Assembly: GCA_020632695.1 (NCBI GenBank)
Contig: JACKFB010000003.1
Location: forward strand, 321,061-385,060
DNA: 64,000 nt
Direction of reading: 5' to 3'
Source of the DNA: Deltaproteobacteria bacterium
GTDB taxonomy: Bacteria > Myxococcota_A > UBA9042 > PHBI01 > JACKFB01
Part shown: positions 18,113 through 61,316 of the stretch, piece by piece
Numbering within the stretch: position 1 is the first letter of the stretch
Layout of the letters: every line of letters begins with the position of its first letter
The notes under the pieces: generated by a model
Databases searched by the model: none
Seen by the model: the letters and a program-made list of their open reading frames with translations, nothing else
What the model was told of the DNA's origin: nothing
Position numbers and translations under genes: made by a program

Positions 18113-18547
18113 ATGACCGTCGCGCTCGAGTATCCCAAGGGGCTGTATGGGCCGTCGCCGCTGGTCGATCTGTCCGACCGGACCGTGCGTGAGCGGTTGG
18201 GTCCGGCGGCGGTCAAGGCCTTCTTCCGCATCATGGAGGCCTGGGGCGTGCGGGACGAGCAGGCGCGGCGTCTCCTGGGCGGCATGTCCAACGGCGCCTT
18301 CTACGCGCTGAAGAAGCAGCCGGAGCGGACGCTGGACGAGGATCGGCTGCGGCGGGTGTCCTTGCTGGTCGGCATCTTCAAGGCGCTCAACATCCTCTAC
18401 GACGAGGCGCTGGCCGACCGCTGGATGCAGCTCCCCAACCGCAACCGCCTGTTCGGCGGCGAGACCCCGCTCGACTACCTGATGTCCGGCGGCCTCCCGG
18501 CCTTCCTGACCCTGCGCCGGCTGCTCGATGCTCGCCGCGCAGGGTGA
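18113..18547 (+). CDS. Xre-like antitoxin with DUF2384 domain (RES-Xre system)
   Basis: 144 aa. C-terminal region typical of MbcA/ParS/Xre DUF2384 antitoxins. Overlaps the downstream RES gene by 20 nt. Confidence 0.7.
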   Translation: MTVALEYPKGLYGPSPLVDLSDRTVRERLGPAAVKAFFRIMEAWGVRDEQARRLLGGMSNGAFYALKKQPERTLDEDRLRRVSLLVGIFKALNILYDEALADRWMQLPNRNRLFGGETPLDYLMSGGLPAFLTLRRLLDARRAG

Positions 18548-19232
18548 GCTGCCGCCGGTCACCCGGCTGAGCCGCGCGGGCACGCACCGCCTGATCCCGT
18601 CGAACTACCTCGACGAGGGCGACAGCGTGCTGACGCGCCTCACCGGCGACGAGGGCGAGCTGGCGCTGCTCTTCGAGCTGGACCAGGCCACCAATGACCG
18701 CGGCGCCGCCGAGAACGGGCGCGCGCCGGCCATCGGCCCCGACGAGCTGGTCTTCGGCGTGCCCTACTACCGCACCGTCAACGCCGCCTTCGTCCATGCC
18801 CACCCGCTGGGCGCCCGCTTCAACGGGCCCGAGCGCGGCGCTTGGTACGCGGCCTTCGAGCTGCGCACCGCCCAGGCCGAGGTCGCCTGGCACAAGTCGG
18901 TCGAGCTGGCCGAGGTGGGCTGGTTCGAGCAGCGCCTGACCTGTGACGAGATGCTGGCCGACTTCGCCGGGCCCTTTCACGACCTCCGCGGCCAGCAAGC
19001 CTTCGCCGACTGCCTGCGCCCCGACAGCTACGAAGCCTCCCAGGCCCTGGCCGAGCGCCTGCTCGAGGCGGGCTCCGGCGGCGTCGTCTACCCGAGCATC
19101 CGTCGCGCCGCCGGCACCTGCCTGGCCTGCCTGCGCCCCGCGCTGGTCTACAACGTCCGCCGCGGCGCGCGCTACGTCTTCACCTGGTCCGGCAACGCCT
19201 CCCCGACCATCCGCCGGGAGAGCGGCGCCTGA
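18528..19232 (+). CDS. RES domain toxin
   Basis: R...E...S signature arrangement (RFNGPERGAWYAAFE ... YEASQALAERL ... VVYPSIRRAAG). Lies immediately downstream of the DUF2384 antitoxin. Confidence 0.75.
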   Translation: MLAAQGELPPVTRLSRAGTHRLIPSNYLDEGDSVLTRLTGDEGELALLFELDQATNDRGAAENGRAPAIGPDELVFGVPYYRTVNAAFVHAHPLGARFNGPERGAWYAAFELRTAQAEVAWHKSVELAEVGWFEQRLTCDEMLADFAGPFHDLRGQQAFADCLRPDSYEASQALAERLLEAGSGGVVYPSIRRAAGTCLACLRPALVYNVRRGARYVFTWSGNASPTIRRESGA

Positions 19233-19249: not shown

Positions 19250-20842
19250 CTACTCGAGCCAGCCGCCTGAGATGAGCAGGATCCACTCGGCGCTGCTGGG
19301 GTCGAAGGCGCCGACCGAGCGGGGGTAGCGGAGGACCACCGCGTCGAAGGCGTAGCCGCCTTGCCAGATGGCGGCGGGCAGGGCGGTGGTGCTGACTGTG
19401 GCCAGCGCGGCGGCGACGTCCTCGCCCGAGAGCGAGCCCTCCTGGACCAGATCGAAGCCGCGGGTGGTGCCGAAGCCGCCTGGGGCCTCGCAGCCGGTCG
19501 CCAGATCGCTGATGGGCGCCCAGGCCGTGGGCCAGGTGATGTCGCCGGTGCCGTCCCAGACGATGCTGCCACCGAAGATCGCCAGCCCCGTGTGGGCGCT
19601 GACCACGCCGACGCCGCCGAAGTCGCCCGGCGACTCGTAGAAGACCCAGGCGTCCTCGGGCGTGGGCCCGGAGAGCAGCGTGCCAGTGCCGTAGCCGGTG
19701 ACGCTCTCGGCCTCGGCGCGCGCCGCGCTCTCGTCCAGGCTCTGGTAGGGGCCGGCGACGATGGCGTAGCCGAGCGGCGCCAGGGTGTCGTGGTCCAGGC
19801 GGACCGCGACCGTGAAGGCCTGGGGCTTGGCATAGAGGGTGGCGGCCAGCGCCTGGGTGGCCTCGGCGCAGGCGGCCGAGCTGGCGTCGGTGTCGTTGGC
19901 TGTGTCGTTGGCCGTGTCGTTGGCTGTGTCCGGCGCGGCGTCGGCGCCGGTGTCCGGCCCGGCGTCCGAGGCGTCATCCGACGCGTCGGGGCAGCCGGGG
20001 ATGAAGCAGGCGTCGGTGGCGTAGCAGGCCCAGCTCCCGCCCGAGCAGGAGCAGTGGAGGCTCGGGTAGCACTTGCCGCAGCAGCACTCCTGGCCGAAAT
20101 CGCACTGCAGGCCCTCCGACGTGCAGCCGTCCTCGAAGGAGGGTGCCTTGGCCGGGCAGGTGGCGGCGTCGGGCGCGTCCGCGTCCGTGTCGGCGACGTC
20201 CGGGGCGGGATCGGGCGCGTCGGGCGCGTCGGCGGTGTCCGGCGTGTCGCCCGTGTCGAGCGCATCGGCAGTGTCGGAGCAGCCGGGGAGGAAACAGGCG
20301 TCGGTGGCGTAGCAGGCCCAGCCGCCGCCCGAGCACGAGCAGTGGAGGCTCGGGTAGCACGCGCCGCAGCAGCACTCCTGGCCGAAGTCGCACTCGAGGC
20401 CCTCGGCGCTGCAGGTGGCGTCGAAGCCGGGCTCGGTGGCCGGGCACATCGCGACGTCGGGAATCTCCGCGTCGGCGACGTCTGCGTCGGCGACATCCAC
20501 GTCGTGAGTCGCGTCCGCGTCCGGGTCCGTCGCGTCGACGACGTCGGGGCAGCCGGGGAGCAGGCAGGCGTCGGTGGCCATGCAGGCCCACTCCCCGCCG
20601 ACGCAGGTGCAGGTCTGGCTGGGGTAGCAGGCGCCGCAGCAGCACTCCTGCCCGATGTTCTTGATGGCGCCGTCGGTCGGGCACGAGTCTCCCGCGTCCA
20701 GCGAGACCTCCACGTCGCCGCCGTCGCTGAGCGTCACGACGTCGACGTCAGCGTCCGCCGGGCCCTCGTCCGTCCCGTCGCAGGAGCCGAGTGAGCCGAG
20801 TGAGACTGCGAGGACTGAGGCCACCAGGATGAAGTTCTTCAT
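19250..20842 (-). CDS. secreted lipoprotein with three 12-Cys modules
   Basis: Start at Met 6 (lipobox LGSC). Three copies of a roughly 60-80-aa module CP..P.F...C..EGL.CDFGQECCCG.CYPS..C.C.GG.WAC.ATDAC..PGC separated by D/A/P/T linkers. Cys-free C-terminal domain of about 200 aa. Confidence 0.7.
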   Translation of the reverse strand: MKNFILVASVLAVSLGSLGSCDGTDEGPADADVDVVTLSDGGDVEVSLDAGDSCPTDGAIKNIGQECCCGACYPSQTCTCVGGEWACMATDACLLPGCPDVVDATDPDADATHDVDVADADVADAEIPDVAMCPATEPGFDATCSAEGLECDFGQECCCGACYPSLHCSCSGGGWACYATDACFLPGCSDTADALDTGDTPDTADAPDAPDPAPDVADTDADAPDAATCPAKAPSFEDGCTSEGLQCDFGQECCCGKCYPSLHCSCSGGSWACYATDACFIPGCPDASDDASDAGPDTGADAAPDTANDTANDTANDTDASSAACAEATQALAATLYAKPQAFTVAVRLDHDTLAPLGYAIVAGPYQSLDESAARAEAESVTGYGTGTLLSGPTPEDAWVFYESPGDFGGVGVVSAHTGLAIFGGSIVWDGTGDITWPTAWAPISDLATGCEAPGGFGTTRGFDLVQEGSLSGEDVAAALATVSTTALPAAIWQGGYAFDAVVLRYPRSVGAFDPSSAEWILLISGGWLE

Positions 20843-20953
20843 GCGCCCATGATACACCCCCAGGGACGCCCGGGGCCACGCGTGAGCCGGTGCGACTCGA
20901 CTGCGGCGAGGCGTTGCCCGACGTCCTCGCCGGTGGGGAGGCTTGCGTCTACC

Positions 20954-22741
20954 TCAATCCGTCGGAAACGGCGTCGGGTAGTCCGGCGTGATCTTCGGGC
21001 CGCCGTCGGTACCAGTGGTGGGGGTGACCTCGCCGCTGGGCCAGTGCAGCGTGCCGACGTCCCACAGCTCGCGGTCTTCCAGCGTCACGCCGTTGAGCTC
21101 CGCCTGCAGCGCTCCGTGGACGTAGACGCGCACGGTCGCGGTGGAGGGCCCGAAGTCGTGGTCGCTCCAGTAGTGGACACCGAGCCGATAGTTCTTCCCC
21201 TCTTCGGGCTGTGCCAGGTTGATGATCTCGGGTCCGGCGCCGTCGGTGTCGTCGCGGTCGACGTGCGGGTTGTCATCGATAGCCGGGTCGAGGTCTCCCC
21301 AGTTCGGATCCGCGTTGTACCAGTAGGAGTCGTGAGGCATGCCGAACCACGGTTCGGTGCCGGCCGTCGGGTCGAGACGATCGGGCGCCGACAGCGCGAA
21401 GTGCAGATCCAGGTCAGCGCCGGCCTCGGGGCCCTCGTCGCTCTGGTCGGGGTCGCCCGGCGTGTCCCAGAGCAGCTCGATGTGCACGGCGGCGTCGGGG
21501 GTGACCTGGACCTGGGCGACCGCGTCCCCGCAAGACGGGTTGTCCTGTGCGTCGAAGACCCGCAAACGAACGAGGTACTCGCCCGCCACGTTGGCCTCGA
21601 AGGTAGGTTGGGGGGCCCGGAAGGACGGCAGGAACCCGGAGACCGAGCCGTCCGGCTGTTCGACGCTCCACTCGAATCGCTTCAAGGAGCTGCCCACTGG
21701 GATGCTTTGGAGTCCGTCGAGGTGCAGCCGGGTCTGGGGCGGGACCTCCGCGCCTTCTTGTATCCGGATGACCGCGATCGGGCACTCCGATGCCACGCCG
21801 AAGCCGCGGAGCGGCACATCGCGATTGGCGATACCGGCGTCGGTCACCACCCTCAGCGTTCCCAGATCCGGTACGAGCTCGCCCGTGGCGTCGGTGGCGC
21901 TCAGGGTGGTGGGCTGGTAGCGGACCACCACCACGCCCGACACGCCGGGCGCCAGGACGACGGGCGCCTCGGCGCTCGGTGCAGCCCCTCCGCCGGGCGT
22001 GAGCCCTGCGGCATCGACGGAGAACCCGGGCGCCGCGCCGGGCAGCAGGCTCACGCTCGAGATGGTCAGCGGCAGGTCCTCGCTGCAGTTCGAGAGCTCG
22101 AGCTCCCGCTCGACCTGCGTCCCCACCACCGCGCCGCCGAGTTCGAGCGACGCCGGCGAGAGGGTGATGCACGGTCCGCCCAGGTTGCCGCGCAGCTCGA
22201 CCACCCCCTCGGGATCGCCCGATGAGCCCGCGGTCAGGAACCGCAGCGTCCCCTGCGCGCCGTCCGGCGTGTGCGGATGGAACCCGACGCGAAATTCGTC
22301 GGTGGACTCCCCCGGCGCGAGGGCTACCGGCAGGTGCAGTTCGACCGGCTTCGCGGTGGTAGGGCTGGCGTTGCGCTCGGTCCGCGCTCCGTCGGTGTCC
22401 ACGCGGATGAGCGTGAAAGCGCTGCTGCCAGTGAGCGTGTAGCTGGTGACCGTTATCGGCTGGCCGCCCGCATTGCGCAGCACCAGCGGCACCTCGGACG
22501 CGCTCTCGGGTGCGAGGAAGCCGAAATCCACCGGGTTCGGGGAGACCACCAGCAGCCCGGGCCCGACCGCGTCGTCTGCGGCATCGGTCCCGTCGGGCAC
22601 GTCCGCGGCTTCCGCGACATCCGAGGCGTCTGCCTCAGCGTCCCCGCCGCTGCAACCGACGCCCAGCCACACGCAGGCGCAGAGCCCCAGCGCGAGCCGC
22701 TGAGCTCTGCCCCGACCGCCCGATCGCTGCCTGCCGTGCAT
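20954..22741 (-). CDS. secreted lipoprotein with repeated beta-sandwich-like domains
   Basis: Start at Met 25 of ORF 20954..22813 (lipobox VGCSGG). Acidic linker then several roughly 100-aa beta-rich segments. No catalytic motif recognised. Confidence 0.65.
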   Translation of the reverse strand: MHGRQRSGGRGRAQRLALGLCACVWLGVGCSGGDAEADASDVAEAADVPDGTDAADDAVGPGLLVVSPNPVDFGFLAPESASEVPLVLRNAGGQPITVTSYTLTGSSAFTLIRVDTDGARTERNASPTTAKPVELHLPVALAPGESTDEFRVGFHPHTPDGAQGTLRFLTAGSSGDPEGVVELRGNLGGPCITLSPASLELGGAVVGTQVERELELSNCSEDLPLTISSVSLLPGAAPGFSVDAAGLTPGGGAAPSAEAPVVLAPGVSGVVVVRYQPTTLSATDATGELVPDLGTLRVVTDAGIANRDVPLRGFGVASECPIAVIRIQEGAEVPPQTRLHLDGLQSIPVGSSLKRFEWSVEQPDGSVSGFLPSFRAPQPTFEANVAGEYLVRLRVFDAQDNPSCGDAVAQVQVTPDAAVHIELLWDTPGDPDQSDEGPEAGADLDLHFALSAPDRLDPTAGTEPWFGMPHDSYWYNADPNWGDLDPAIDDNPHVDRDDTDGAGPEIINLAQPEEGKNYRLGVHYWSDHDFGPSTATVRVYVHGALQAELNGVTLEDRELWDVGTLHWPSGEVTPTTGTDGGPKITPDYPTPFPTD

Positions 22742-22873
22742 CTCCACTCCCGCGAGCGCTTCGTCCGCGCGCCGCCGCGGCGCGGTGGACGAGCGCAACC
22801 CGCAGTGTAGCACCCTGGGCAGCGGGCTCCACGGTGTCGGGCGCGCGGCCCGACACCGTGGAGGGTCGCCGAC

Positions 22874-24232
22874 CTACTGCTCGCACTCGCAGACGGACAT
22901 CTTGCCCTGCACGGTGGTCCACCACTGGCCCGTCCAGCGGGCCGGCGCGGCGCACACCTTCGGGCACTTCTTCTTCGCGTCGCCCTGGTTCCAGATGGGC
23001 CCCGCCTCGACGGCCTGCTTCACCGGCACCGGCGTCACGCACTCGCAGACCGACATCTTGCCGGCCACCGTCGTCCACCACTGCCCGTTCCACTTCGAGG
23101 GCGCCGTGCAGACCTTCGGGCACTTCTTCTTCGCGTCGCCCTGGTTCCAGATGGGGCCGGCCTTCCGCGCCTCCTTCGTCTCGGCCGGCGCGGGCTGCGG
23201 CGGAGCCTCGACGACCACCGGCGGCGGCTCGGGCTCGGGCTCGGGCGTGACGACGACCACCGGCGGCGGCGCCCCCACCTCGCACTCACACACCGACATC
23301 TTGCCCTGCACGGTGGTCCACCACTGCCCGGTCCAGCGCGCCGGACCGCGGCACACCCTCGGGCACTTCTTCTTGGCGTCGCCCTGGTTCCAGATGGGCC
23401 CGGCTTCGCGCGCCTCCTTGAAGACGACCGGCGTCGCGCACTCGCACACCGACATCTTGCCCTGGACCGTGGTCCACCACTGGCCGGTCCACCGCGACGG
23501 CGCGCTGCACACGCTCGGGCACTTCTTCTGGGCGTCGCCCTGGTTCCAGATGGGGCCCGCCTCGCGCGCCTCCTTCGTCTCCGCCGGGGCCGCCGAGACC
23601 GGAGCGGGCGCGGGCTCCTCGGCCGCCTCGCTGATGCGCCAGAGCTGGTTCCGGTTGCCCGACGCCTTCTTCGGGTACGCGATGATGCGCGCCAGCGGCT
23701 CGGGGCTGCCGCCGTCGATGTCGAGGACGAAGCCGTTGAGCTTGCTCTCGATGAAGAACCAGCCGGGGACCGGCGAGCGCACCCGGCGCCAGAGCTGGTT
23801 GTCGGTGCCCTCCGCCTTCTTCGGGTAGGCGATGATGCCGGTGGCCGGCGCGGGGTTGGCGCCGTCGATGTCGAGGACGAAGCCATTGAGCTTGCTCTCG
23901 ATGAAGAACCAGCCGCGCTGGGGCGCCGGCACCATGCGCCAGAGCTGGTTGTCGGCGCCCTCGGCCTTCTTCGGGTAGGAGATGACGTGCGCGGCCGGCG
24001 CGTTGCTGCCGCCCTCGATGTCCATCACGAAGCCGTTGAGGCGGCTCTCGATGTAGCCGAAGTCGCCGCGATCGCCGTGCGGGGCGCGGCGCGCCTGAGC
24101 CGTGCCCGCCGATGCGGTGACGGCGAGGGCGACGGTCAGCGCGAGACCTCGCAGCCTGAGCGCCGGAGGCCGGGCGCTGCGCGGGTCGGGCGGCGGGGCG
24201 GCGACGGGAAGACGGGGCGGTGTGGTGATCAT
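22874..24232 (-). CDS. secreted lectin-like protein: three ricin-B (QxW) repeats plus four small 4-Cys lectin-like repeats
   Basis: Signal peptide. Three beta-trefoil-type LNGFVLDIDG...AYPKK...DNQLWR repeats. Then four copies of AGPIWNQGDAKKKCP.VC..P.RWTGQWWTTV.GKMSVCEC, resembling the family NCBI names mannan-binding family protein. Confidence 0.7.
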   Translation of the reverse strand: MITTPPRLPVAAPPPDPRSARPPALRLRGLALTVALAVTASAGTAQARRAPHGDRGDFGYIESRLNGFVMDIEGGSNAPAAHVISYPKKAEGADNQLWRMVPAPQRGWFFIESKLNGFVLDIDGANPAPATGIIAYPKKAEGTDNQLWRRVRSPVPGWFFIESKLNGFVLDIDGGSPEPLARIIAYPKKASGNRNQLWRISEAAEEPAPAPVSAAPAETKEAREAGPIWNQGDAQKKCPSVCSAPSRWTGQWWTTVQGKMSVCECATPVVFKEAREAGPIWNQGDAKKKCPRVCRGPARWTGQWWTTVQGKMSVCECEVGAPPPVVVVTPEPEPEPPPVVVEAPPQPAPAETKEARKAGPIWNQGDAKKKCPKVCTAPSKWNGQWWTTVAGKMSVCECVTPVPVKQAVEAGPIWNQGDAKKKCPKVCAAPARWTGQWWTTVQGKMSVCECEQ

Positions 24233-24365
24233 GGCGACTCCTCGGGGGCGGACCGCCGGCAAGCCTCGACGAGGGCGCCGCCACCCATACCGGCGGGCAG
24301 CGGCGGGTCGTCGACCGGCGATGTCGGGAACGAGGCGGCGACGCTACACCAGCCGAGGAATTCAA

Positions 24366-43167: not shown

Positions 43168-46100
43168 ATGACTTCCGAACGCCACCTGGAAGAGTCGTTC
43201 ATCGCCAAGCTCGTCAGCCTCAAGTACGAGTATTGTGAAGACATCGATGATCGGGACAGCCTCGAAACCAACTTCCGCCAGAAGTTCCAAGCGCTCAACC
43301 AGGTCAAGCTGACCGACGGCGAGTTCAAGCGACTCCTCGACGAGATCGTCACGCCGGACGTCTATGAAGCCGCGCGCGCCCTGCGAAATCGGGAGGCGTT
43401 CATCCGCGATGACGGCACCCCGCTCAACTACACGCTTGTCAACATCAAGGACTGGTGCAAGAACAGCTTCCAGGTCATCAACCAGCCGAGCATCAACACG
43501 GACAACAGCCGTCACCGCTACGATGTCCTGCTCCTGATCAATGGCGTCCCTGTGGTCCAGGTCGAGCTCAAGACGCTCGGAATCAGCCCCCGGCGAGCGA
43601 TGGAGCAGATCGTCGCGTACAAGAACGACCCCGGGAACGGCTACTCGAAGACGCTGCTCTGCTTCATCCAGCTCTTCATCGTCAGCAACCGCACGGACAC
43701 TTGGTACTTCGCGAACAACAACGCGCGGCATTTCGCCTTCGACGCCGACGAGCGCTTCCTTCCCATCTACCAGTTCGCCACCGACGACAACACGAAGGTC
43801 ACCCACCTCGATGACTTCGCCGAGGCCTTCCTGGCCAAGTGCACGCTCGGGCACATGATCAGCAAGTACATGGTTCTCATCGCCAGCGAGCAGAAGCTGA
43901 TGATGATGCGGCCGTATCAGATCTACGCCGTGAAGGCCATCGTCGACTCCATCGACCAGGACTGCGGCAACGGTTACATCTGGCATACGACCGGCTCCGG
44001 CAAGACGCTGACCTCCTTCAAGGCCTCGACGCTCCTCAAGACCAACGAGCGCATCCACAAGTGTCTCTTCGTCGTGGACCGCAAGGACCTCGACCGCCAG
44101 ACCCGCGAGGAGTTCAACCGCTTCCAAGAGGGTTGCGTCGAAGAAAACACCAACACCGCGACGCTCGTCGACCGCCTTCTGTCCGATGACTACGCCGACA
44201 AGGTCATCGTCACCACCATCCAGAAGCTCGGCCTGGCCCTCGACCAGAACAGCAAGCAGAGCAAGCAGCACGTCGCTCGGGGCCGGAACACCTACAAGCA
44301 GCGGCTGGAGTCCCTGCGCGACAAGCGCATGGTGTTCATCTTCGACGAGTGCCACCGCTCCCAGTTCGGCGAGAACCACAAGGCCATCAAGGAGTTCTTC
44401 CCCAACTCCCAGCTCTTCGGCTTCACCGGCACGCCGATCTTCAAGGACAACGCCACCGTGAAGCAGGTGGAAGGCGACAAGGCCACGCTGCGTACCACGC
44501 AGGACCTGTTCCAGAAGCAGCTCCACGCCTACACGATCACCCACGCCATCGAGGACCGCAACGTCCTCCGCTTCCACGTCGACTACTACAAGCCCAAGGA
44601 CGCCGCGGTCCCCCCGCCGGGCGAGACGTTGACGAAGAAGGCCGTCGCCCAGGCCATCCTCGACAAGCACGATGCGGCGACAGGAGCCCGGCGCTTCAAC
44701 GCGCTGCTCGCCACCGCTTCCATCAACGACGCCATCGAGTACCACGGCGTCTTCAAGAAGCTGCAAGCCGAGCGCCTGGCGGCAGACCCCGGCTTCGTGC
44801 CCCTGAAGATCGCAGCGGTGTTCTCCCCCCCGGCGGCGGGCAACAGGGACGTCCAGCAGCTCCAAGAGGACCTGCCCCAAGAGAAGGAGGACAACCGCCA
44901 GGATCCCGAGGGAAAGAAGGCCGCGCTCGAGGCCATCATCACCGACTACAACCAGCGGTACGGCACCAACCACGACATCAACAATTTCGACCTCTACTAC
45001 CAGGACGTCCAGCAGCGCATCAAGTACCAGCAGTTCCCCAACCGCGACCTGCCCCAGAAGGGCGCCGAGAAGATCGACATCACCATCGTGGTCGACATGC
45101 TGCTCACCGGCTTCGACGCCCGGTTCCTGAACACGCTCTACGTGGACAAGAATCTCAAGCACCACGGCCTGATCCAGGCCTTCTCGCGCACCAACCGTGT
45201 CCTCAACGCGACGAAGCCCTACGGCCACATCCTCGACTTCCGCCAGCAGCAGAAGAGCGTCGACGCCGCGATCACGCTCTTCTCCGGCGCACAGGCCGAC
45301 CGGGCCCGCGAGATCTGGCTGGTCGACAAGGCCCCCGTCGTCATCGAGAATCTCGAACAGGCCGTCGCCGACCTCGGCGCGTTCATGAAGTCCCAAGGCC
45401 TCGAAGCCAGACCAGAACAGGTGAACAACCTGAAGGGCGACGCCGCCCGAGCGCAGTTCATCAAGCGATTTCGGGAGGTCCAGCGCCTCCAGACGCAGCT
45501 CGACCAGTACACCGACCTCACCGAGGAGCAGCGGGAGCAGATCGAGCAGGCCCTTCCCAAAGACGATCTCCGTGCCTTCCGCGGCGTCTACCTCGAGACG
45601 GCCAAGCGCCTGAGGGAGCAGCAAGCCGTCGCGGGCACTGGCGAAGCGCCGGTCGACCCCGAGCTCGACCAGCTCGACTTCGAGTTCATCCTCTTCGCCT
45701 CCGCGGACATCGACTACGACTACATCATGAAGCTGATCGCGAAGTACTCGGGCCTGGACCCGGAGCGAAGCGAGAAGACCCGCCAGCAGCTCATCGGCAT
45801 GATCCAGTCCGACGCCAAGTTCCTGGACGAGCGCGAGTCGATCACCGAGTACGTCCGCTCGCTTCCGGTGGGCGAGGCGCTCGACGAGTCCGCCGTCCAC
45901 TCCGGGTACGAGAAGTTCAAGGCCGCGCGGCAGGCCAAGGAGCTCGAACGCCTCGCCGAGGCCCATGGCCTGACGAAGGAGTCCCTCTCGGCCTTCGTCG
46001 ACACCATCCTCCAGCGCATGGTGTTCGACGGCGAGCTGCTCACCGACCTGATGGCGCCCCTCGATCTGGGCTGGCGCGAACGCCGCGAGCGAGAGCTCGC

Positions 46101-46194
46101 CCTTATGACGCAGCTCGTCCCGCTCCTGAACAAGAGGGCCCACGGCCGGGAGATCTCAGGCCTGAATGCGTACGAGCATGGGGGAGGCCGGTGA
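43168..46194 (+). CDS. hsdR: type I restriction enzyme R subunit
   Basis: 1008 aa. DEAD/DEAH helicase motifs (TGSGKT, DECHRSQ), an N-terminal restriction domain and the C-terminal HsdR helical domain. GC markedly lower than flanking DNA. Confidence 0.95.
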   Translation: MTSERHLEESFIAKLVSLKYEYCEDIDDRDSLETNFRQKFQALNQVKLTDGEFKRLLDEIVTPDVYEAARALRNREAFIRDDGTPLNYTLVNIKDWCKNSFQVINQPSINTDNSRHRYDVLLLINGVPVVQVELKTLGISPRRAMEQIVAYKNDPGNGYSKTLLCFIQLFIVSNRTDTWYFANNNARHFAFDADERFLPIYQFATDDNTKVTHLDDFAEAFLAKCTLGHMISKYMVLIASEQKLMMMRPYQIYAVKAIVDSIDQDCGNGYIWHTTGSGKTLTSFKASTLLKTNERIHKCLFVVDRKDLDRQTREEFNRFQEGCVEENTNTATLVDRLLSDDYADKVIVTTIQKLGLALDQNSKQSKQHVARGRNTYKQRLESLRDKRMVFIFDECHRSQFGENHKAIKEFFPNSQLFGFTGTPIFKDNATVKQVEGDKATLRTTQDLFQKQLHAYTITHAIEDRNVLRFHVDYYKPKDAAVPPPGETLTKKAVAQAILDKHDAATGARRFNALLATASINDAIEYHGVFKKLQAERLAADPGFVPLKIAAVFSPPAAGNRDVQQLQEDLPQEKEDNRQDPEGKKAALEAIITDYNQRYGTNHDINNFDLYYQDVQQRIKYQQFPNRDLPQKGAEKIDITIVVDMLLTGFDARFLNTLYVDKNLKHHGLIQAFSRTNRVLNATKPYGHILDFRQQQKSVDAAITLFSGAQADRAREIWLVDKAPVVIENLEQAVADLGAFMKSQGLEARPEQVNNLKGDAARAQFIKRFREVQRLQTQLDQYTDLTEEQREQIEQALPKDDLRAFRGVYLETAKRLREQQAVAGTGEAPVDPELDQLDFEFILFASADIDYDYIMKLIAKYSGLDPERSEKTRQQLIGMIQSDAKFLDERESITEYVRSLPVGEALDESAVHSGYEKFKAARQAKELERLAEAHGLTKESLSAFVDTILQRMVFDGELLTDLMAPLDLGWRERRERELALMTQLVPLLNKRAHGREISGLNAYEHGGGR

Positions 46195-48635: not shown

Positions 48636-50234
48636 CCAGCAGAAGCTCGGCAAGACGCTCTGGGCCATCGCCGATCAGCTCCGCGGGGCGATGAACGCGG
48701 ACGACTTTCGCGACTACATGCTCGCGTTCCTGTTCCTCCGCTACCTGTCGGACAACTACGAGCAGGCCGCGAAGAAGGAACTCGGGCGTGACTACCCGGA
48801 TCCAAAGGCGATCGGCAACGGCGGGCGGTCCGCTCTGTCCGTGTGGTACGGACAGAACCGGACGATGTGACGGCATTCGAGAAGCAGATGCGCCTCAAGG
48901 CGCACTATGTGATCCTCCCCAAGTACCTGTGGGCCAGCGTTTCCCACATGGCCCGCACTCAGGACGAGCAGCTTCTGAACACCCTCCAGGCCGGCTTCAA
49001 GTACATCGAGAACGAGTCGTTCGAGAGCACCTTCTCGGGCCTGTTCTCGGAGATCAACCTCGGCTCGGACAAGCTCGGCAAGAACTACTCCGCCCGCAAT
49101 ACGAAGCTCTGCACGATCATCGGCGAGATCGCGAAGGGGCTCGCCGATTTCTCCACCGACAGCGACACGCTGGGAGACGCCTACGAGTACCTGATCGGCC
49201 AGTTCGCCGCAGGCTCGGGCAAGAAGGCGGGCGAGTTCTACACGCCGCAGCGGATCTCGGACATCCTCTCCGGCATCGTCACGCTCGACAGCCAGGAGCC
49301 GGGGGCAGGGACGCGCGAGCGGCTCGGCAGCGTGATGGACTTCGCCTGCGGGTCGGGCTCGTTGCTGCTGAACGTCCGAAAGCGCATGGGGGCGCACGGC
49401 ATCGGGAGGATCTTCGGGCAGGAGAAGAACATCACGACCTACAATCTGGCGCGGATGAACATGCTGCTACATGGGGTGAAGGACTCAGAGTTCGAGATCT
49501 ACCATGGCGACACGCTGACCAACGACTGGGACATGCTCCGCGAGACCAACCCGGCGAAGAAGCCGTACTTCGACGCCGTGGTCGCCAATCCGCCGTTCAG
49601 CTACCGCTGGGACCCGAGTGACGCCTCGGCCGAGGATGTGCGCTTCAAGAACTACGGGCTGGCGCCGAAGTCTGCCGCGGACTTCGCGTTCTTGCTCCAC
49701 GGCTTCCACTACCTCAAAGACGACGGCGTGATGGCCATCATCCTGCCGCATGGGGTGCTGTTCCGCGGCGGTGCTGAGGCGAAGATACGCGCGAAGCTGC
49801 TCGAAGATGGCAACATCGACACCATCATCGGGCTGCCCGCGAACCTGTTCTACTCGACGGGGATCCCGGTCTGCATCCTGGTGCTCAAGAAGTGCAAGAA
49901 GCCCGATGACGTGTTGTTCATCAACGCCGTCGAGCATTTCGACAAGGGCAAGCGGCAGAACGTCCTCAGCGACGAGCACATCGCGAAGATCGTCAGAACC
50001 TACAAGCATCGCAAGGAGGAGACGCGGTACTCGCGGCGGGTGGAGATGGCCGAGATCCAGGCGAACGAGTACAACCTGAACATCTCGCGCTATGTGAGCA
50101 CGGCCAAGCCGGAGGTCGAGATCGACTTGGCGGCGACGCAAGAGGAGCTGGTGCGGATCGAGGACGAGATCCGCAAGGCGAAGGATCTGCACAACGGCTT
50201 CCTCGAGCAGCTCGGTCTGAAACCTCTGCCCTGA
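48621..50234 (+). pseudogene. hsdM: type I R-M N6-adenine DNA methyltransferase subunit, frameshifted
   Basis: ATG 48621 gives MTEH then a stop. The HsdM N-domain (DQQKLGKTLWAIADQLRG...FLFLRYLSD) is read in the +1 frame 48625..48870. The catalytic body with the ANPPF motif is in the original frame from 48843. Confidence 0.75.
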
Positions 50235-52586: not shown

Positions 52587-55500
52587 TCAGCCGAGTCGAT
52601 GAAGGCGGCGCCCCGCCGCCAGCTCGTGTCGCTCGCGTCGCCGCGTCCAGGCCCAGCCGAGGAGCAGCGCGGCGAGCCACGCGCCGCCGTCGCCCGTGGT
52701 GCCGGTGCAGCCTCCGCCTCCGCTGCCTCCGTCGCCTCCGCCGCCCGCGCGGTCGGTCTCCGGCTCGGCGCCGACGTCGTCCGGCGACGCGTCGCCGCTG
52801 GCGTCGGGGGGCGCGCCCGCGTCTTCCCGGTCCGCCACGTCGTCGAGCCCCGCGTCGTCCGGCGGCAGTGCCACGCAGAGGCCGGCCTCCGATCGTGTGC
52901 CGGCGGGGCAGCAACCGTCCACGTCAGCGCAGGCGCCGGGCTCGCACTCGGTCCGCTGCAGCTCCTCGCCGCAGCCGCTGGTCTCCACCCACACGTCGCC
53001 GGCGCAGGCTGCGGTCGACGGCAGCTCGCCGCAGTTGCAGGTCCCCGAGTCGGGCAGGCAGCGCCGTGCGCCGACAGCCCCGGACTTGCAGGAGTAGCCG
53101 CTCGGGCAGGCGTCGGCCAGGCCGCAGGGGACCACGCAGAACGCGCCCGTCGGCATCTGGAGGCAGGTGCCGACGAGGCACTCGGTCGTGTCGCACGGAG
53201 CGCAGGCGACTGGCTCGCAGACGCCGTCCGCGCAGGCGGAGCCGAGCTCGCAGGTCAGGGGCGTGCCTGCGCACTCTCCGGCGGAGCAGGTGTCGCCTTG
53301 GGTGCACGGGTCGCCGTCGTCGCAGCTCGCGGTGTTGTCCTGGTGGACGCAGCCGGAGACCGGGTCGCAGGCGTCGGTGGTGCAGGGGTCGCCGTCGTCG
53401 CAGGCGACCGACGTGTGGGTGCAGCCGGAGGCGGGGTCGCAGGCGTCGGCGGTGCAGGCGTCGCCGTCGTCGCAGGCGATGGCGGCGTGGGTGCAGCCGG
53501 AGGCGGGGTCGCAGGCGTCGGTGGTGCAGGCGTCGGCGTCGTCGCAGGCGATGGCGGTGTGGGTGCAGCCGGAGGCGGGGTCGCAGGCGTCGAAGGTGCA
53601 GGCGTCGGCGTCGCTGCAGGGGACCGGGGCGTGGGTGCAGCCGGTCGCCGGGGCGCAGGCGTCGGTGGTGCAGGGGTTGGCGTCGTCACAAGCGACGCTG
53701 GTGTGGGTACACCCGGACGCCGGGGTGCAGGCATCCGAGGTGCAGGCGTTGGTGTCGTCGCAGTCGCGCGCCGCGTGCGTGCAGCCGAGCTTCGGGTCGC
53801 AGGCGTCGGTGGTGCAGGGGTCCGAGTCGTCGCAGGTGACGGCCGAGTGCCCGCAGCCGGTCTTGGGGTCGCAGGTGTCCTGGGTGCAGGCGTCGCCGTC
53901 GTTGCAGGTGGTGGCGGAGTGCACGCAGCCCGAGGCCGGGTCGCAGGCGTCGGTCGTGCATACGTTCGCGTCGTCGCAGTTCACGGGCGCGCTCACGCAG
54001 CCGCTCTTCGGCTTGCAGGTGTTCGCGGTGCAGGCGTCGGCGTCGTCGCAGTCGACGGCGGCGTGCGCGCAGCCGGAGGCCGGGTCGCAGGTGTCCGCGG
54101 TGCAGGCGTTGGCGTCGTCGCAGCTCAGGGGCACGGACACGCACCCGGCGACGGGGTCGCAGGTGTCTGCGGTGCAGGCGTTCCCGTCATCGCAGCCGAT
54201 GGCCGTGTGGACGCACCCGGTCGCGTGGTCGCAGGTGTCGACGGTGCACACGTTGGCGTCGTCGCAGTCGAGGGACGGGTGGGCGCAGCCGGTGGCGGGG
54301 TCGCAGGTGTCTGCGGTGCAGGCGTCCGCGTCGTCGCAGTCCACCAGATCGGTGACGCATCCCGCCGCGGGGTCACAGGTCTCGGTGGTGCAGACGTCCA
54401 GATCCTCGCAGGACACGAGCTGGTGGGTGCAGCCCTCATCCGCGTCGCAGGCGTCGGTGGTGCAGGCGTCACCGTCGTCGCAGTCCACGGGGTCGTGGGT
54501 GCAGCCGGTGGCGGGGTCGCAGCCGTCGGCGGTGCAGGCGTCGCCGTCGTCGCACGGGTTGGGCGTGAAGAGGCAGGCGCCCGAGCTGTCGCAGCCATCA
54601 TCGGTGCACGGGTCACCGTCATCGCAGGCCTGGGCCACGTGGGTGCAGCCCGTCGCCGGGTCGCAGGCGTCGACGGTGCACGCGAGCGCGTCGTCGCAGT
54701 CGACCGCCGTGGTGGCGCAGCCGGTGAGCGGGTCGCAGATGTCGGTGGTGCAAGCGTTCGCGTCGTCGCAGTCGACCAGGTCGGTGACACAGCCCAGCGC
54801 CGGGTCGCAGGTGTCGGTGGTGCAGGCGTCGTCGTCGTCGCAGTCGACGCTGGCGTGCCCGCACCCGGTGGCGGAGTCGCAGGAGTCGACGGTGCAGGCG
54901 TTCGCGTCGTCACAGTCGACGGCGGCGTGCCCGCAGCCGGCGAGCGGGTCGCAGGTGTCGGTGGTGCAGGCGTCGCCGTCGTCGCAGCCGACGCTGGCGT
55001 GGCCACAGCCGGTGGCGGGGTCACAGGTGTCGTTGGTGCAGGCGTCCGCGTCGTCGCAGTCGACGCTGGTGTGCTCGCAGCCGGCGAGCGGGTCGCAGGT
55101 GTCGTTGGTGCAGGCGTCGTCGTCGTCGCAGCCGACGCTGGCGTGGCCACAGCCGGTGGCGGAGTCGCAAGTGTCGTTGGTGCAGGCGTCCGCGTCGTCG
55201 CAGTCGATGGCGGCGTGCCCGCAGCCGGTGGCGGAGTCGCAAGTGTCGTTGGTGCAGGCGTCCGCGTCGTCGCAGTCGACGGCGGCGTGCTCGCAGCCGG
55301 CGGCGGAGTCGCAAGTGTCGTCGGTGCAGGCGTCCGCGTCGTCGCAGTCGACCAGGTCGGTGACGCACCCTGCCGCCGGGTTGCAAGTCTCGTTGGTGCA
55401 GGCGTCCGCGTCGTCGCAGTCGATGGCGGCGTGCTCGCAGCCGGTGGCGGAGTTGCAGGAGTCGGCGGTGCAGGCGTCCGCGTCGTCGCAGTCGACGTTC

Positions 55501-57785
55501 GCGTGCTCGCAGCCGGTCACCGGGTCGCAGGTGTCGACGGTGCAGGCATCGCCGTCGTCGCAGGAGTGGGGCGCGAAGGTGCAGTCGCCCGAGCTGTCGC
55601 AGCCGTCGTCGGTGCACGGGTTGCCATCGTCGCACTGCTGCGCCACATGGGTGCAGCCAGTCCCCGGGTCGCACGCGTCGACCGTGCACGGGAGCGCATC
55701 GTCGCAGTCGATCCCGGCGTGCGCGCAGCCGGTGCCGGGCTCGCAGGTGTCTGCGGTGCAGGCGTCGGCGTCGTCGCAGTCGACCGCGGCGTTGGCGCAG
55801 CCTGTGGCGGGGTCGCAGGTGTCCGCGGTGCAGGCGTCGGCGTCGTCGCAGTCGACGGCGGTGTTCACGCAGCCCGACGCCGGGTTGCAGCTGTCGGTGG
55901 TGCAGGCGTCGGCGTCGTCGCAGTCGGTCCCCGCGTGGGCGCAGCCGGTGGTCGAGTCGCAGGTGTCTGCGGTGCATGCGTCCGCGTCGTCACAGTCGAT
56001 GGTGGCGTTGACGCATCCCGACGCCGGATCGCAGCTGTCGGTCGTGCATGCGTCGGCGTCGTCGCAGTCGACGGTGCGGCGTGGCCGCAGCCGGTGGTCG
56101 AGTCGCAGGTGTCGTTGGTGCAGGCGTCCGCGTCGTCGCAGGTCGCAGGTGTCGTTGGTGCAGGCGTCGGCGTCGTCGCAGTCGACGGCGGCGTGGGCGC
56201 AGCCGGTGGTCGAGTCGCAGGTGTCGTTGGTGCAGGCGTCCGCGTCGTCGCAGTCGACGGCGGCGTTGACGCATCCCGACGCCGGATCGCAGCTGTCGGT
56301 CGTGCATGCGTCGGCGTCGTCGCAGTCGACGGTGGCGTGGCCGCAGCCGGTGGTCGAGTCGCAGGTGTCCGCGGTACAGGCGTCCGCGTCGTCGCACTCG
56401 ACGGCATCGTTCACGCATCCCGAAGCGGAGTCGCAGCTGTCGGAGGTGCAGGCGTCGGCGTCATCACAGTCGACCGCGGTGTGGCCGCATCCGGTGGTCG
56501 AGTCGCAGCTATCGGTGGTGCAGGCGTCAGCGTCGTCGCAGTCGACGGCATCGTTGACGCATCCCGAAGCCGGGTCGCAGCTGTCGGAGGTGCAGGCGTC
56601 GACGTCATCACAGTCGACGGCGGCGTGGCCGCATCCGGTCGTCGGGTCGCAGCTATCGGTGGTGCAGGCGTCGGCGTCGTCGCAGTCGACGGCGGCGTGC
56701 TCGCAGCCGGTGGTCGGGTCGCAGCTATCGGTGGTGCAAGCGTCCGCGTCGTCGCAGTCGACGGCGGCGTGCTCGCAGCCGGTCACCGGGTCGCAGGTGT
56801 CGACGGTGCAAGCATCGCCGTCGTCGCAGGAGTGAGGCTCGAAAGCGCAATCGCCCGAGCTGTCGCAGCCGTCGTCGGTACACGGGTTGCCGTCGTCGCA
56901 CTGCTGAGCCACATGGGTGCAGCCCGTCCCCGGATCGCACGCGTCGACCGTGCACGGGAGCGCATCGTCGCAGTCGATCCCGGCGTGCGCGCACCCGGTG
57001 ACGGGATCGCAGGTGTCTGCGGTGCAAGCGTCCGAGTCGTCGCAGTCGACCGCGGCGTTGGCGCAGCCTGTGGCGGGGTCGCAGGTGTCCGCGGTGCAGG
57101 CGTCGGCGTCGTCACAGTCGACGGCGGCGTTCACGCATCCCGACGCCGGGTTGCAACTGTCGGTGGTGCAGGCGTCGGCGTCGTCGCAGCTCACCGCGGC
57201 GTTGGCGCAGCCCGTGGTGGGGTCGCAGGTGTCTGCGGTGCAGGCGTCGGCGTCGTCACAGTCGAGGGCGGCGTGCTCGCATCCCGAGGCAGAGTCGCAG
57301 CCATCGGTGGTGCAGGCGTCGGCGTCGTCGCAGTCGACCGCGGCGTGCCCGCAGCCGGTTGTCGGGTCGCAGGTGTCGGTGGTGCAGGCGTTGGCGTCGC
57401 CGCAGTCGATCGCGGCGTTGGCGCAGCCGGTAGTGGAGTCGCAGGTGTCTGCGGTGCAGGCATCGGCGTCGTCGCAATCGACGCGCGCGTGGGCGCAGCC
57501 GGTGTGGGGTCGCAGGTGTCTGTGGTGCAGGCGTCGGCGTCGTCGCAGTCGACTGCCGTGTTGACGCACCCCGAGGCGGGGTCGCAGCTGTCGGTGGTGC
57601 AGGCGTCTGCGTCGTCGCAGCTCACCGCCTCGTTGGCGCAGCCTGTGGTGGGGTCGCAGGTGTCTGCGGTGCAGGCGTCGGCGTCGTCGCAGTCGACTGC
57701 CGTGTTGACGCATCCCGATGCCGCGTTGCAGCTGTCGGTGGTGCATGCGTCGGCGTCGTCGCAATCGACGCTCGCGTGGGCGCAC
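52587..57785 (-). CDS. C-terminal portion of giant secreted protein: tandem 24-aa Cys-rich repeats plus MYXO-CTERM-like sorting signal
   Basis: In-frame [19 protein letters not shown] units throughout. Ends with a Cys/Gly-rich stretch, a hydrophobic helix and an Arg cluster ([33 protein letters not shown]). Joined to the upstream portion by a frameshift near 57.49 kb. Confidence 0.75.
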
Positions 57786-58860
57786 CCGGTGCTCGAGTCG
57801 CAGCTGTCGGTGGTGCAGGCGTCCGCGTCGTCACAGTCGAGGGCGGTGTTGACGCACCCCGAGGCGGGGTCGCAGCTGTCGGTGGTGCAGGCGTCGGCGT
57901 CGTCGCAGCTCACCGCGTCGTTGACGCACCCCGAGGCGGGGTCGCAGCTGTCGGTGGTGCAGGCGTCCGCGTCGTCGCAGTCGAGGGCGTCGTTGACGCA
58001 CCCCGAGGCGGGGTCGCAGCTGTCGGTGGTGCAGGCGTCCGCGTCGTCGCAGCTCACCGCGTCGTTGACGCACCCCGAGGCGGGGTCGCAGCTGTCGGTG
58101 GTGCATGCGTCTGCGTCGTCGCAGCTCACGGCGTCGTTGGCGCAGCCTGTGGTGGGGTCGCAGGTGTCTGCGGTGCAGGCGTCGGCGTCGTCGCAGTCGA
58201 CTGCCGTGTTGACGCATCCCGACGCCGCGTTGCAGCTGTCGGTGGTGCATGCGTCTGCGTCGTCGCAATCGACGCTCGCGTGGGCGCACCCGGTGCTCGA
58301 GTCGCAGCTGTCGGTGGTGCAGGCGTCTGCGTCGTCGCAGCTCACCGCGGCGTTGACGCACCCGGAGGCGGGGTCGCAGCTGTCGGTGGTGCAGGCGTCG
58401 GCGTCGTCGCAGCTCACGCCGGTGTGGATGCAGCCCGCGGCCGCGTTGCAGGTGTCCGCGGTGCACGCGTCCGCGTCGTCGCAGTCGACCGCCGCGGTGA
58501 CGCACCCCGTCGCCGGCTCGCAGGTGTCCGCGGTGCACGCGTCCGCGTCGTCGCAGTCGACCGCGGCGTTGACGCAGCCGGTCGCAGGGTCGCAGCTGTC
58601 GACGGTGCAGGCGTCCGCGTCGTCGCAGCTCACGCCGGTGTGGACGCAGCCCACGGCCGGGCTGCATGTGTCATCGGTGCACGCGTTGGCGTCGTCGCAG
58701 TCCACGGCCGCTCGCACGCACCCGCTGCCCGAGTCGCAGACATCGCTGGTGCACGCGTCGTCGTCGTCGCAGTCGACCGGCACCACCACGCACGTGCCCG
58801 CGGCTCCGCAGCTCGTCTCGGTGCAGGCGTCTCCGTCCTCGCACGCCGCGTCGCTCAGCA
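53285..58860 (-). repeat. array of about 72-bp coding tandem repeats (roughly 75-80 units, estimated from length not counted)
   Basis: Unit CDD(A/G)DACT.D.CDP..GC.H..V(D/S) with 4 Cys per 24 aa. Very high nucleotide-level similarity between units. Confidence 0.8.
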
Positions 58861-60901: not shown

Positions 60902-61316
60902 CGAGTCTCCATGTCGTCCGACCGGGCGACCCACGGGAGCGAAGTTTTCCGGGACAGGACCTTCTAGCCATGCGCCCGCACGCGGTCAATGAGCAGTCCA
61001 CTCTCGCTCGGAACCCGCTCCGAGCCGGAGGCGACCCCGCCGCTGGGCGCTCCCCGCCGCCGAGCAGGGCCCGGCCGCCACCGGAAAGCTGCCCGGGCGA
61101 CCGAGTGGCTGGACCTGCGCGGAATCAGACCGCATAGTGTCGCCCACGATCGCTTCAGCCGCGGAGCGTGCGAGGCCTCTCCGGAGACTACCGGCCGCGG
61201 TCCGGCAGCGGTCCCCGACACCCATGCCAGAATCAGCCAGTCCCGCCGCGGCGGGACGCGTCAGCGGGCAGCCCATCGCGGCCGCGCGAGGGCGCCGCAC
61301 GACCAGAGGAGCCTCC

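Follow-up and report, generated by a model that had tools for sequence, protein, structure and literature searches.

The lipoprotein gene and its layout

We analysed a stretch of 64,000 nucleotides (nt), hereafter the window, of contig JACKFB010000003.1 (forward-strand positions 321,061 to 385,060; assembly GCA_020632695.1, deposited as Deltaproteobacteria bacterium), and followed up one gene on its minus strand, at 19250 to 20842, whose product is a predicted lipoprotein of 530 residues with three cysteine-rich modules. The GC content of the three codon positions in this frame, 0.66/0.59/0.94 in a window of 72% GC, identifies it as the true coding frame among the overlapping open reading frames (ORFs), and the long ORFs lying across it in other frames fail the same test. 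A spurious ORF or low-complexity artefact was ruled out by the third-position GC content together with the homologues, 85 of which were retrieved by database search. Besides the ATG, an in-frame GTG at 20857 could serve as the start, neither of the two is preceded by a convincing ribosome-binding site, and a promoter and terminator scan around the gene returned nothing. The features of the gene, in the order of the protein, are as follows.

19250..20842, minus: coding sequence of the 530-residue lipoprotein precursor, with ATG start and stop codon at 19250-19252 (ORF list, codon-position GC, 85 homologues)
20780..20842, minus: signal peptide with lipobox, MKNFILVASVLAVSLGSLGS followed by C21 (read from the sequence)
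20684..20779, minus: acidic linker 0, residues 22-53, 11 D/E and no K/R (composition)
20549..20683, minus: module 1, residues 54-98, truncated, 10 Cys, lacking C1 and C3 (hidden Markov model positions 11-61, independent E-value 3e-21; Cys positions; alignment)
20447..20548, minus: acidic linker 1, residues 99-132 (composition; short tandem DNA repeats)
20279..20446, minus: module 2, residues 133-188, full copy, 12 Cys (hidden Markov model, independent E-value 5e-25)
20159..20278, minus: acidic linker 2, residues 189-228, 90% D/A/P/T (composition; tandem DNA repeats of 9-21 nt)
19991..20158, minus: module 3, residues 229-284, full copy, 12 Cys (hidden Markov model, independent E-value 5e-27; DNA alignment; AlphaFold2 model)
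19886..19990, minus: acidic linker 3, residues 285-319, with a (DTAN)x3 repeat (composition; 12-nt tandem repeat at 19890-19930)
19253..19885, minus: C-terminal DUF8347 (PF27110) domain, residues 320-530, two conserved Cys, ending in GGWLE (PF27110 matches of homologues; family hidden Markov model; AlphaFold2)

An earlier note, made from the letters alone, had described the product as a lipoprotein with three modules of 12 cysteines each, joined by acidic linkers and followed by a cysteine-free domain of about 200 residues. Most of this description was borne out. The N-terminus, MKNFILVASVLAVSLGSLGS followed by C21, is a signal peptide that ends in a lipobox, [LVI][ASTVIG][GAS]-C, and a lipobox-like motif lies within the first 45 residues of 61 of the 85 homologues. 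Each of the three modules contains the motif ECCCGxC with its CCC triplet, and all three are matched by the hidden Markov model (HMM) of the family; the count of 12 cysteines holds for modules 2 and 3 and not for module 1, which has 10. The linkers are acidic as described, each with 11-13 D/E and no K or R at all, and D, A, P and T together make up 47-90% of their residues. The size given for the C-terminal domain was about right (211 residues), while its supposed lack of cysteines was not, given Cys325 and Cys451.

The protein sequences of modules 2 and 3 have 79% identity and their DNA 86%, which marks the two as a recent intragenic duplication. The DNA of the linkers (19883-19990 and 20162-20277) is made up of imperfect tandem repeats of short period (9-24 nt), such as the 12-nt unit behind (DTAN)x3, and this suggests that linker length changes by slippage. 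When the window was scanned with the family HMMs, no other gene in it was found to contain the module or the C-terminal domain.

The module is a fairly widespread, uncurated domain family

The family profile was built from an alignment (A1) of 63 module sequences, with the consensus CP-x3-P-x(3-5)-C-x(5,6)-C-x-[YFW]-G-x-E-CCC-G-x-C-x-[PA]-S-x2-C-x-C-x(3,4)-W-[AG]-C-x2-T-D-[AF]-C-x4-C. All 12 cysteines are invariant or nearly so in this alignment, which also shows no variation at G24, E26, T50 and D51 and hardly any at G30, S35 and W45. Aromatic residues are conserved after C3, at the nearly invariant Trp45 and after C10. For the A1 module AlphaFold2 gave a confident all-beta model (predicted local distance difference test, pLDDT, 89.7; predicted template modelling score, pTM, 0.72) with hairpins formed by strands 26-28/31-33 and 36-41/44-49.

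The database search for homologues of the whole protein showed that the module can occur without the C-terminal domain, and the C-terminal domain without the module. With the A1 profile, a HMMER search of 1.84 billion cluster representatives returned 570 proteins at E ≤ 1e-3; 252 of them passed a cut-off of 1e-10 and 22 one of 1e-30. A re-scan of the retrieved proteins found one module copy in 108 of them, two in 54, three in 14, four in 5 and five in 4, and in some, for example P0086, the copies adjoin directly like beads on a string. Recurrence in 570 clusters, together with the identity of modules 2 and 3, places the repeat far beyond chance.

The taxonomic spread, which the earlier note had proposed to examine, covers uncultured Myxococcota and at least one marine protist (Acantharea). 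When GTDB was scanned with one genome for each species, the module was located at 62 loci, every one of them in a metagenome-assembled genome and none in a named cultured isolate. Nearly all of these records are labelled Myxococcota, Myxococcales, Polyangiaceae, Bradymonadia or 'Deltaproteobacteria'; two carry the label Enterobacteriaceae, which is probably wrong. No relatives were found on viral contigs. A clear module is present at residues 614-667 of the EukProt EP00493 transcript P0226 from the acantharean Phyllostaurus siculus (E 2.8e-21, lacking C8 and C10), a type-I membrane protein that also has cystatin-like and VWC/pacifastin-like domains, and the family thus crosses the boundary between bacteria and eukaryotes. 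Further matches lie on short, transcript-like contigs that are eukaryotic in look. Across its family the module is joined to many other, unrelated extracellular partners, among them Kazal, pacifastin-like, potato inhibitor I, cystatin, lipase/alpha-beta hydrolase, VWD, PAN, fn2 and Hint domains, as befits a building block of general extracellular use. The module is a genuine domain family, as yet uncurated, within the well-known class of small disulfide-rich extracellular repeats.

Searches for a named family or fold

The module matches no named fold in Pfam, NCBIfam, the PDB or BFVD, in line with the earlier note, whose reader had not recognised the cysteine pattern. The whole protein had no match in Pfam-A even at E ≤ 10, a single match in NCBIfam at E = 5, far under the curated cut-off, and no usable match among PDB sequences by phmmer. 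The copy of Pfam-A used for this direct scan lacked the PF27110 model, and the assignment of that family comes from the precomputed matches of homologues. Relatives that carry the module only have no precomputed Pfam family, in a Pfam set recent enough to hold PF27110, and in a relative with two modules PF27110 was the sole Pfam match, faint matches included. No EGF-like or laminin-type family, the kind of match that the earlier note had named as telling against its reading, appeared in Pfam at E ≤ 10 or among the Foldseek rows. Membership in the granulin or hevein families was considered and rejected for want of a profile match; the cysteine spacing of the module also differs from that of the two families. 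A literature search on PF27110, on Kazal domains in Myxococcota and on cysteine-rich lipoproteins of Bradymonadales found nothing relevant.

The structural comparison, which the earlier note had also proposed, gave the same picture. Foldseek with the module model found nothing significant in the PDB, the best row being the VWC domain 3bk3_C (E 1.2, probability 0.38, TMq 0.49), and nothing significant in BFVD either (best E 1.9). The weak rows include CBM14 and peritrophin-A, and these, along with the conserved aromatic residues of so small a disulfide-rich domain (after C3, Trp45 and after C10), would suit modules that are small carbohydrate-binding units, conceptually like hevein or peritrophin-type chitin binders, attaching the lipoprotein to polysaccharide of the cell wall or matrix. 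A lectin gene with four MVL repeats and a RicinB domain two genes upstream on the same strand, and an MVL-like gene 1 kb from the orthologue P0008, could be taken in the same sense. We nevertheless consider glycan binding quite improbable: the CBM14 and peritrophin-A rows, at E 3-9 and template modelling (TM) scores of 0.25-0.33, are noise, no Pfam family of chitin- or carbohydrate-binding domains matches the module, and the lectin neighbour occurs in two loci only and may reflect shared ancestry.

Cysteine pairing

We aligned 238 full-length copies to the module profile and counted the missing conserved cysteines. C4 and C7 were jointly absent in 61 of the 238 copies and C8 and C10 in 48, while C2 and C9 were jointly absent in 3 copies, all of one protein, and C5 and C11 in a single copy; the truncated module 1 of our lipoprotein lacks both C1 and C3. 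An even number of cysteines was kept in 227 copies (95%). The hairpins of the model put C4 directly across the strands from C7, and C8 from C10. From these data we infer the disulfide map 1-3, 2-9, 4-7, 5-11 and 8-10, with good support for 4-7 and 8-10 and a tentative assignment of the others; C6-C12 is a tentative sixth pair, assigned by elimination. The joint loss of C4 and C7 in 61 copies also indicates that the first cysteine of the CCC triplet, as partner of C7, can be dispensed with.

Because the cysteines are lost in pairs, their number stays even in 95% of the copies and the lipoprotein signal would direct export, they are most probably engaged in disulfides rather than in metal binding, which the earlier note had offered as one of two options. 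Metal-thiolate units of a metallothionein-like or copper-binding kind would account for the very high cysteine density, 12 in 56 residues with the CCC triplet among them, and one distant relative does contain MopE-type putative copper-binding motifs. We judge this explanation very unlikely all the same. The losses are specific to pairs, the two best-supported of which span predicted beta-hairpins, and the first cysteine of the triplet is dispensable along with C7; moreover, no His or Met is conserved, the predicted fold is beta-rich with a conserved Trp, and a protein with signal peptide and lipobox would fold in an oxidising compartment.

Resemblance to knottins, pacifastins and a sister module

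The other option of the earlier note, a knottin-like domain, found no support. The only match of the A1 profile to the PDB was the spider double-knot toxin Tau-theraphotoxin-Hs1a (DkTx), at a non-significant E of 0.14. The likeness is confined to the N-terminal half of the module, where both have the local pattern C-x6-C-x-[WFY]-G-x-x-CC, and the register of that alignment needs pairs C3-C7 and C4-C8/9, in conflict with the C4-C7 and C8-C10 indicated by joint loss. Foldseek did not return a knottin, and a relationship to this group is not supported.

In its C-terminal half the module has in common with pacifastins and with subdomain 1 of VWC domains, both of them three-disulfide beta-hairpin modules, the motif CxC-(3-5)-G-x-W-x-C-T..C. 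The disulfide connectivity of pacifastins is 1-4, 2-6, 3-5 (PMC13388995), and the candidate module pairs C2-C9, C5-C11 and C8-C10 (the cross-hairpin pair) would match it in this order, though the first of these comes from 3 copies of one protein and the second from 1 copy. Our module differs from those in its 12 cysteines (theirs have 6), its CCC triplet and an additional subdomain at the N-terminus. Neither Pacifastin_I nor VWC is a Pfam match to the module. The pacifastin sequences used in the comparison were verified against the PDB.

A sister module with 10 cysteines, CxGPDPSxxCxDTGCPxGxxC...CxPSxCxCxDGxWxCTADCGPxYxC, occurs in the same bacteria. It has the core PS-x-C-x-C...W-x-C-T-x-D-C in common with the CCC module (hhalign 87.7% probability, E 3.4e-6, 36 columns) and differs from it in having no CCC triplet, 10 cysteines and another N-terminal spacing. 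It too is uncurated, with no Pfam match. We observed it in P0044, P0046, P0072-P0085, P0115, P0136, P0137, P0180 and P0185, often alongside the CCC module within one protein, and in some cases ahead of DUF8347. Against pacifastin-like domains, hhalign gave the sister module a probability of 78.5%, and the CCC module 39% over 14 columns; these pairwise E-values are not corrected for database or cysteine bias, and comparisons of cysteine-rich sequences are prone to score inflation. Given that inflation and the lack of a profile or Foldseek match, we treat the pacifastin resemblance as a lead and not as membership.

This lead bears on the possibility that the modules serve to bind targets or act as inhibitors, for instance as a new protease-inhibitor scaffold distantly akin to pacifastin and VWC, with which a predatory bacterium would neutralise or bind proteases of its prey or its own. 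Kazal domains are present in 7 of the 52 module-bearing proteins of the homologue search and in more relatives from the profile search, and other module proteins have pacifastin-like, potato-inhibitor-I or cystatin domains. The stretch CxC-x3-G-x-W-A-C-x2-T-D-x-C in the C-terminal half resembles the pacifastin hairpin CxC...GxWACT...C and also the bacterial pacifastin/VWC-like domains that neighbour the module in some proteins, the candidate pairs would reproduce the pacifastin connectivity, and hhalign links module to sister and sister to pacifastin-like domains in a chain. The direct comparison of the module with pacifastin is weak, however, the Pfam Pacifastin_I matches in relatives fall outside the module, and Foldseek with the module model returned no pacifastin structure, though such structures are present in the PDB. 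Nor could a reactive-site loop be identified in the module, and its company with inhibitors may merely reflect that all of these are extracellular building blocks. We therefore regard an inhibitor role as unlikely, although less so than glycan binding.

For function, EGF-like and laminin-type repeats offer an analogy: they and the module are small, disulfide-locked, tandem and shuffled among extracellular proteins. There is no similarity in sequence or structure between them, and the module would pack six disulfides into 56 residues, where EGF has three in about 40.

The C-terminal domain DUF8347

The last 211 residues belong to Pfam family PF27110 (DUF8347), and along the whole domain they are 44-75% identical to proteins with a precomputed PF27110 match. 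Such a match was found in 46 of the first 85 homologues and in nearly all matches of a later search, and an HMM built from the PF27110 homologues recognised our protein (E 4e-99, positions 3-215). Of the two cysteines in the domain, Cys325 is invariant across the family and Cys451 almost so. AlphaFold2 modelled the domain with high confidence (pLDDT 95.2, pTM 0.92). Against the PDB it had no profile match, and the best Foldseek row there had an E of 0.24 and a TM score of about 0.2.

In all 111 members retrieved, DUF8347 ends no more than 8 residues from the C-terminus. A typical member is about 300 residues long (median 300) and, unlike our lipoprotein, lacks a cysteine-rich module. The extreme C-terminal position is the same, and both cysteines are conserved. 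The CCC module is absent from 98 of the 111 members, single in 10 and double in 3, so that the three copies found here are the most seen. The segment between lipobox and DUF8347 is filled in other members by acidic repeats alone, other cysteine-rich repeats, or FG-GAP/VCBS or dockerin-like segments. CCC modules are thus optional in DUF8347 proteins.

A proposed stalk-and-head lipoprotein

The layout of the protein suggests the following arrangement. The precursor would be exported by the Sec/Lsp route as a lipoprotein of an uncultured-type Myxococcota bacterium. Cys21, once exposed by cleavage, would receive a lipid and hold the protein on a membrane outside the cytoplasm. This anchor would be the base of a tether in which negative, probably disordered D/A/P/T linkers alternate with three compact all-beta modules of about 56 residues, each presumably locked by six disulfides, or five in the truncated module 1. 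The tether would end in the globular alpha/beta DUF8347 domain, the constant and presumably functional 'head'. The modules would be optional, duplicable units, resistant to proteases and denaturation, which extend and stiffen the stalk as spacers, keeping the head at a distance from the lipid anchor, or serve in interactions, comparable to EGF-like repeats in eukaryotic matrix proteins. We hold it to be about an even call that the protein is a lipid-anchored stalk-and-head protein of this kind, whose modules are stable spacer or interaction units with a structural or adhesive role. Lipidation and surface exposure are predicted from sequence features and the role in a stalk or in adhesion is a proposal; the descriptive parts, namely the architecture, the module family and its spread, the disulfide character, the optional modules and the lack of a known relative, are much firmer than the mechanism.

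Several points weigh against the stalk-and-head proposal. The functions given to the modules and to DUF8347 are inferred, as are lipidation and localisation, and the disulfide map depends on joint-loss statistics that give thin support to three of its six pairs. Gene neighbourhoods are not conserved and offer no functional clue: no conserved partner was found across 62 loci and 3 long contigs. The invariant polar residues of the module (E26, T50, D51, S35 and W45) seem to exceed what a passive spacer needs, and could form a ligand or Ca2+ site. In addition, about 8% of module proteins carry protease-inhibitor domains, of four families, which hints at a more specific role for the module.

EGF, knottins, Kazal and pacifastin domains are building blocks of extracellular biology and favoured scaffolds for engineered stable binders. 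A more far-reaching possibility is that the ECCCG module is an undescribed six-disulfide mini-protein fold common to uncultured, probably predatory Myxococcota and to Acantharea, maybe horizontally exchanged and maybe a hyperstable binding or protease-inhibitor scaffold, in which case DUF8347 would be a second new fold; we place this on the unlikely side. Defining the module would annotate hundreds of 'hypothetical' secreted proteins and add a new scaffold class, and its study might show how uncultured, possibly predatory bacteria build their surfaces. Its distribution, in uncultured Myxococcota and a radiolarian-type protist, is unusual. The find is descriptive, and merits a family description and a structure without being field-changing.

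Neighbouring genes and other features of the window

Directly upstream of the lipoprotein gene, at 20954-22813 on the minus strand, lies a gene for a putative lipoprotein of 619 residues with weak Ig-like (DUF4232/ASH) matches, relatives of which (39-40% identity) are found within a few kb of module genes in loci L060 and L061. The putative lectin gene lies at 22874-24262, minus, two genes upstream of the lipoprotein gene, and its product has four MVL mannan-binding repeats and a ricin-B beta-trefoil. The MVL-like gene near P0008 is about 1 kb from it, in locus L064. The proximity of MVL lectins may be a loose association or shared ancestry.

On the other side, a toxin-antitoxin pair occupies 18113-19232 on the plus strand, its antitoxin gene (Xre/MbcA/ParS type, 18113-18547) sharing 20 nt with the gene of the RES-domain toxin (18528-19232). 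Pair and lipoprotein gene converge, and no more than 17 nt separate their stop codons.

Farther away, the GC content falls from about 0.72 to 0.575-0.68 between 42000 and 50300, a region that holds a type I restriction-modification system (HsdR, 43168-46194; N6-methylase HsdM, 48843-50234) and is probably a horizontally acquired island. A giant secreted protein is encoded at 52587-60934 on the minus strand; behind its subtilase S8 domain come at least 69 cysteine-rich CTDC repeats of 24 residues of the Dictyostelium type (PF00526). Two overlapping ORFs represent it, and this suggests either one gene of about 2780 residues or a frameshift. The CTDC array is another eukaryote-like cysteine-rich repeat in the same window.

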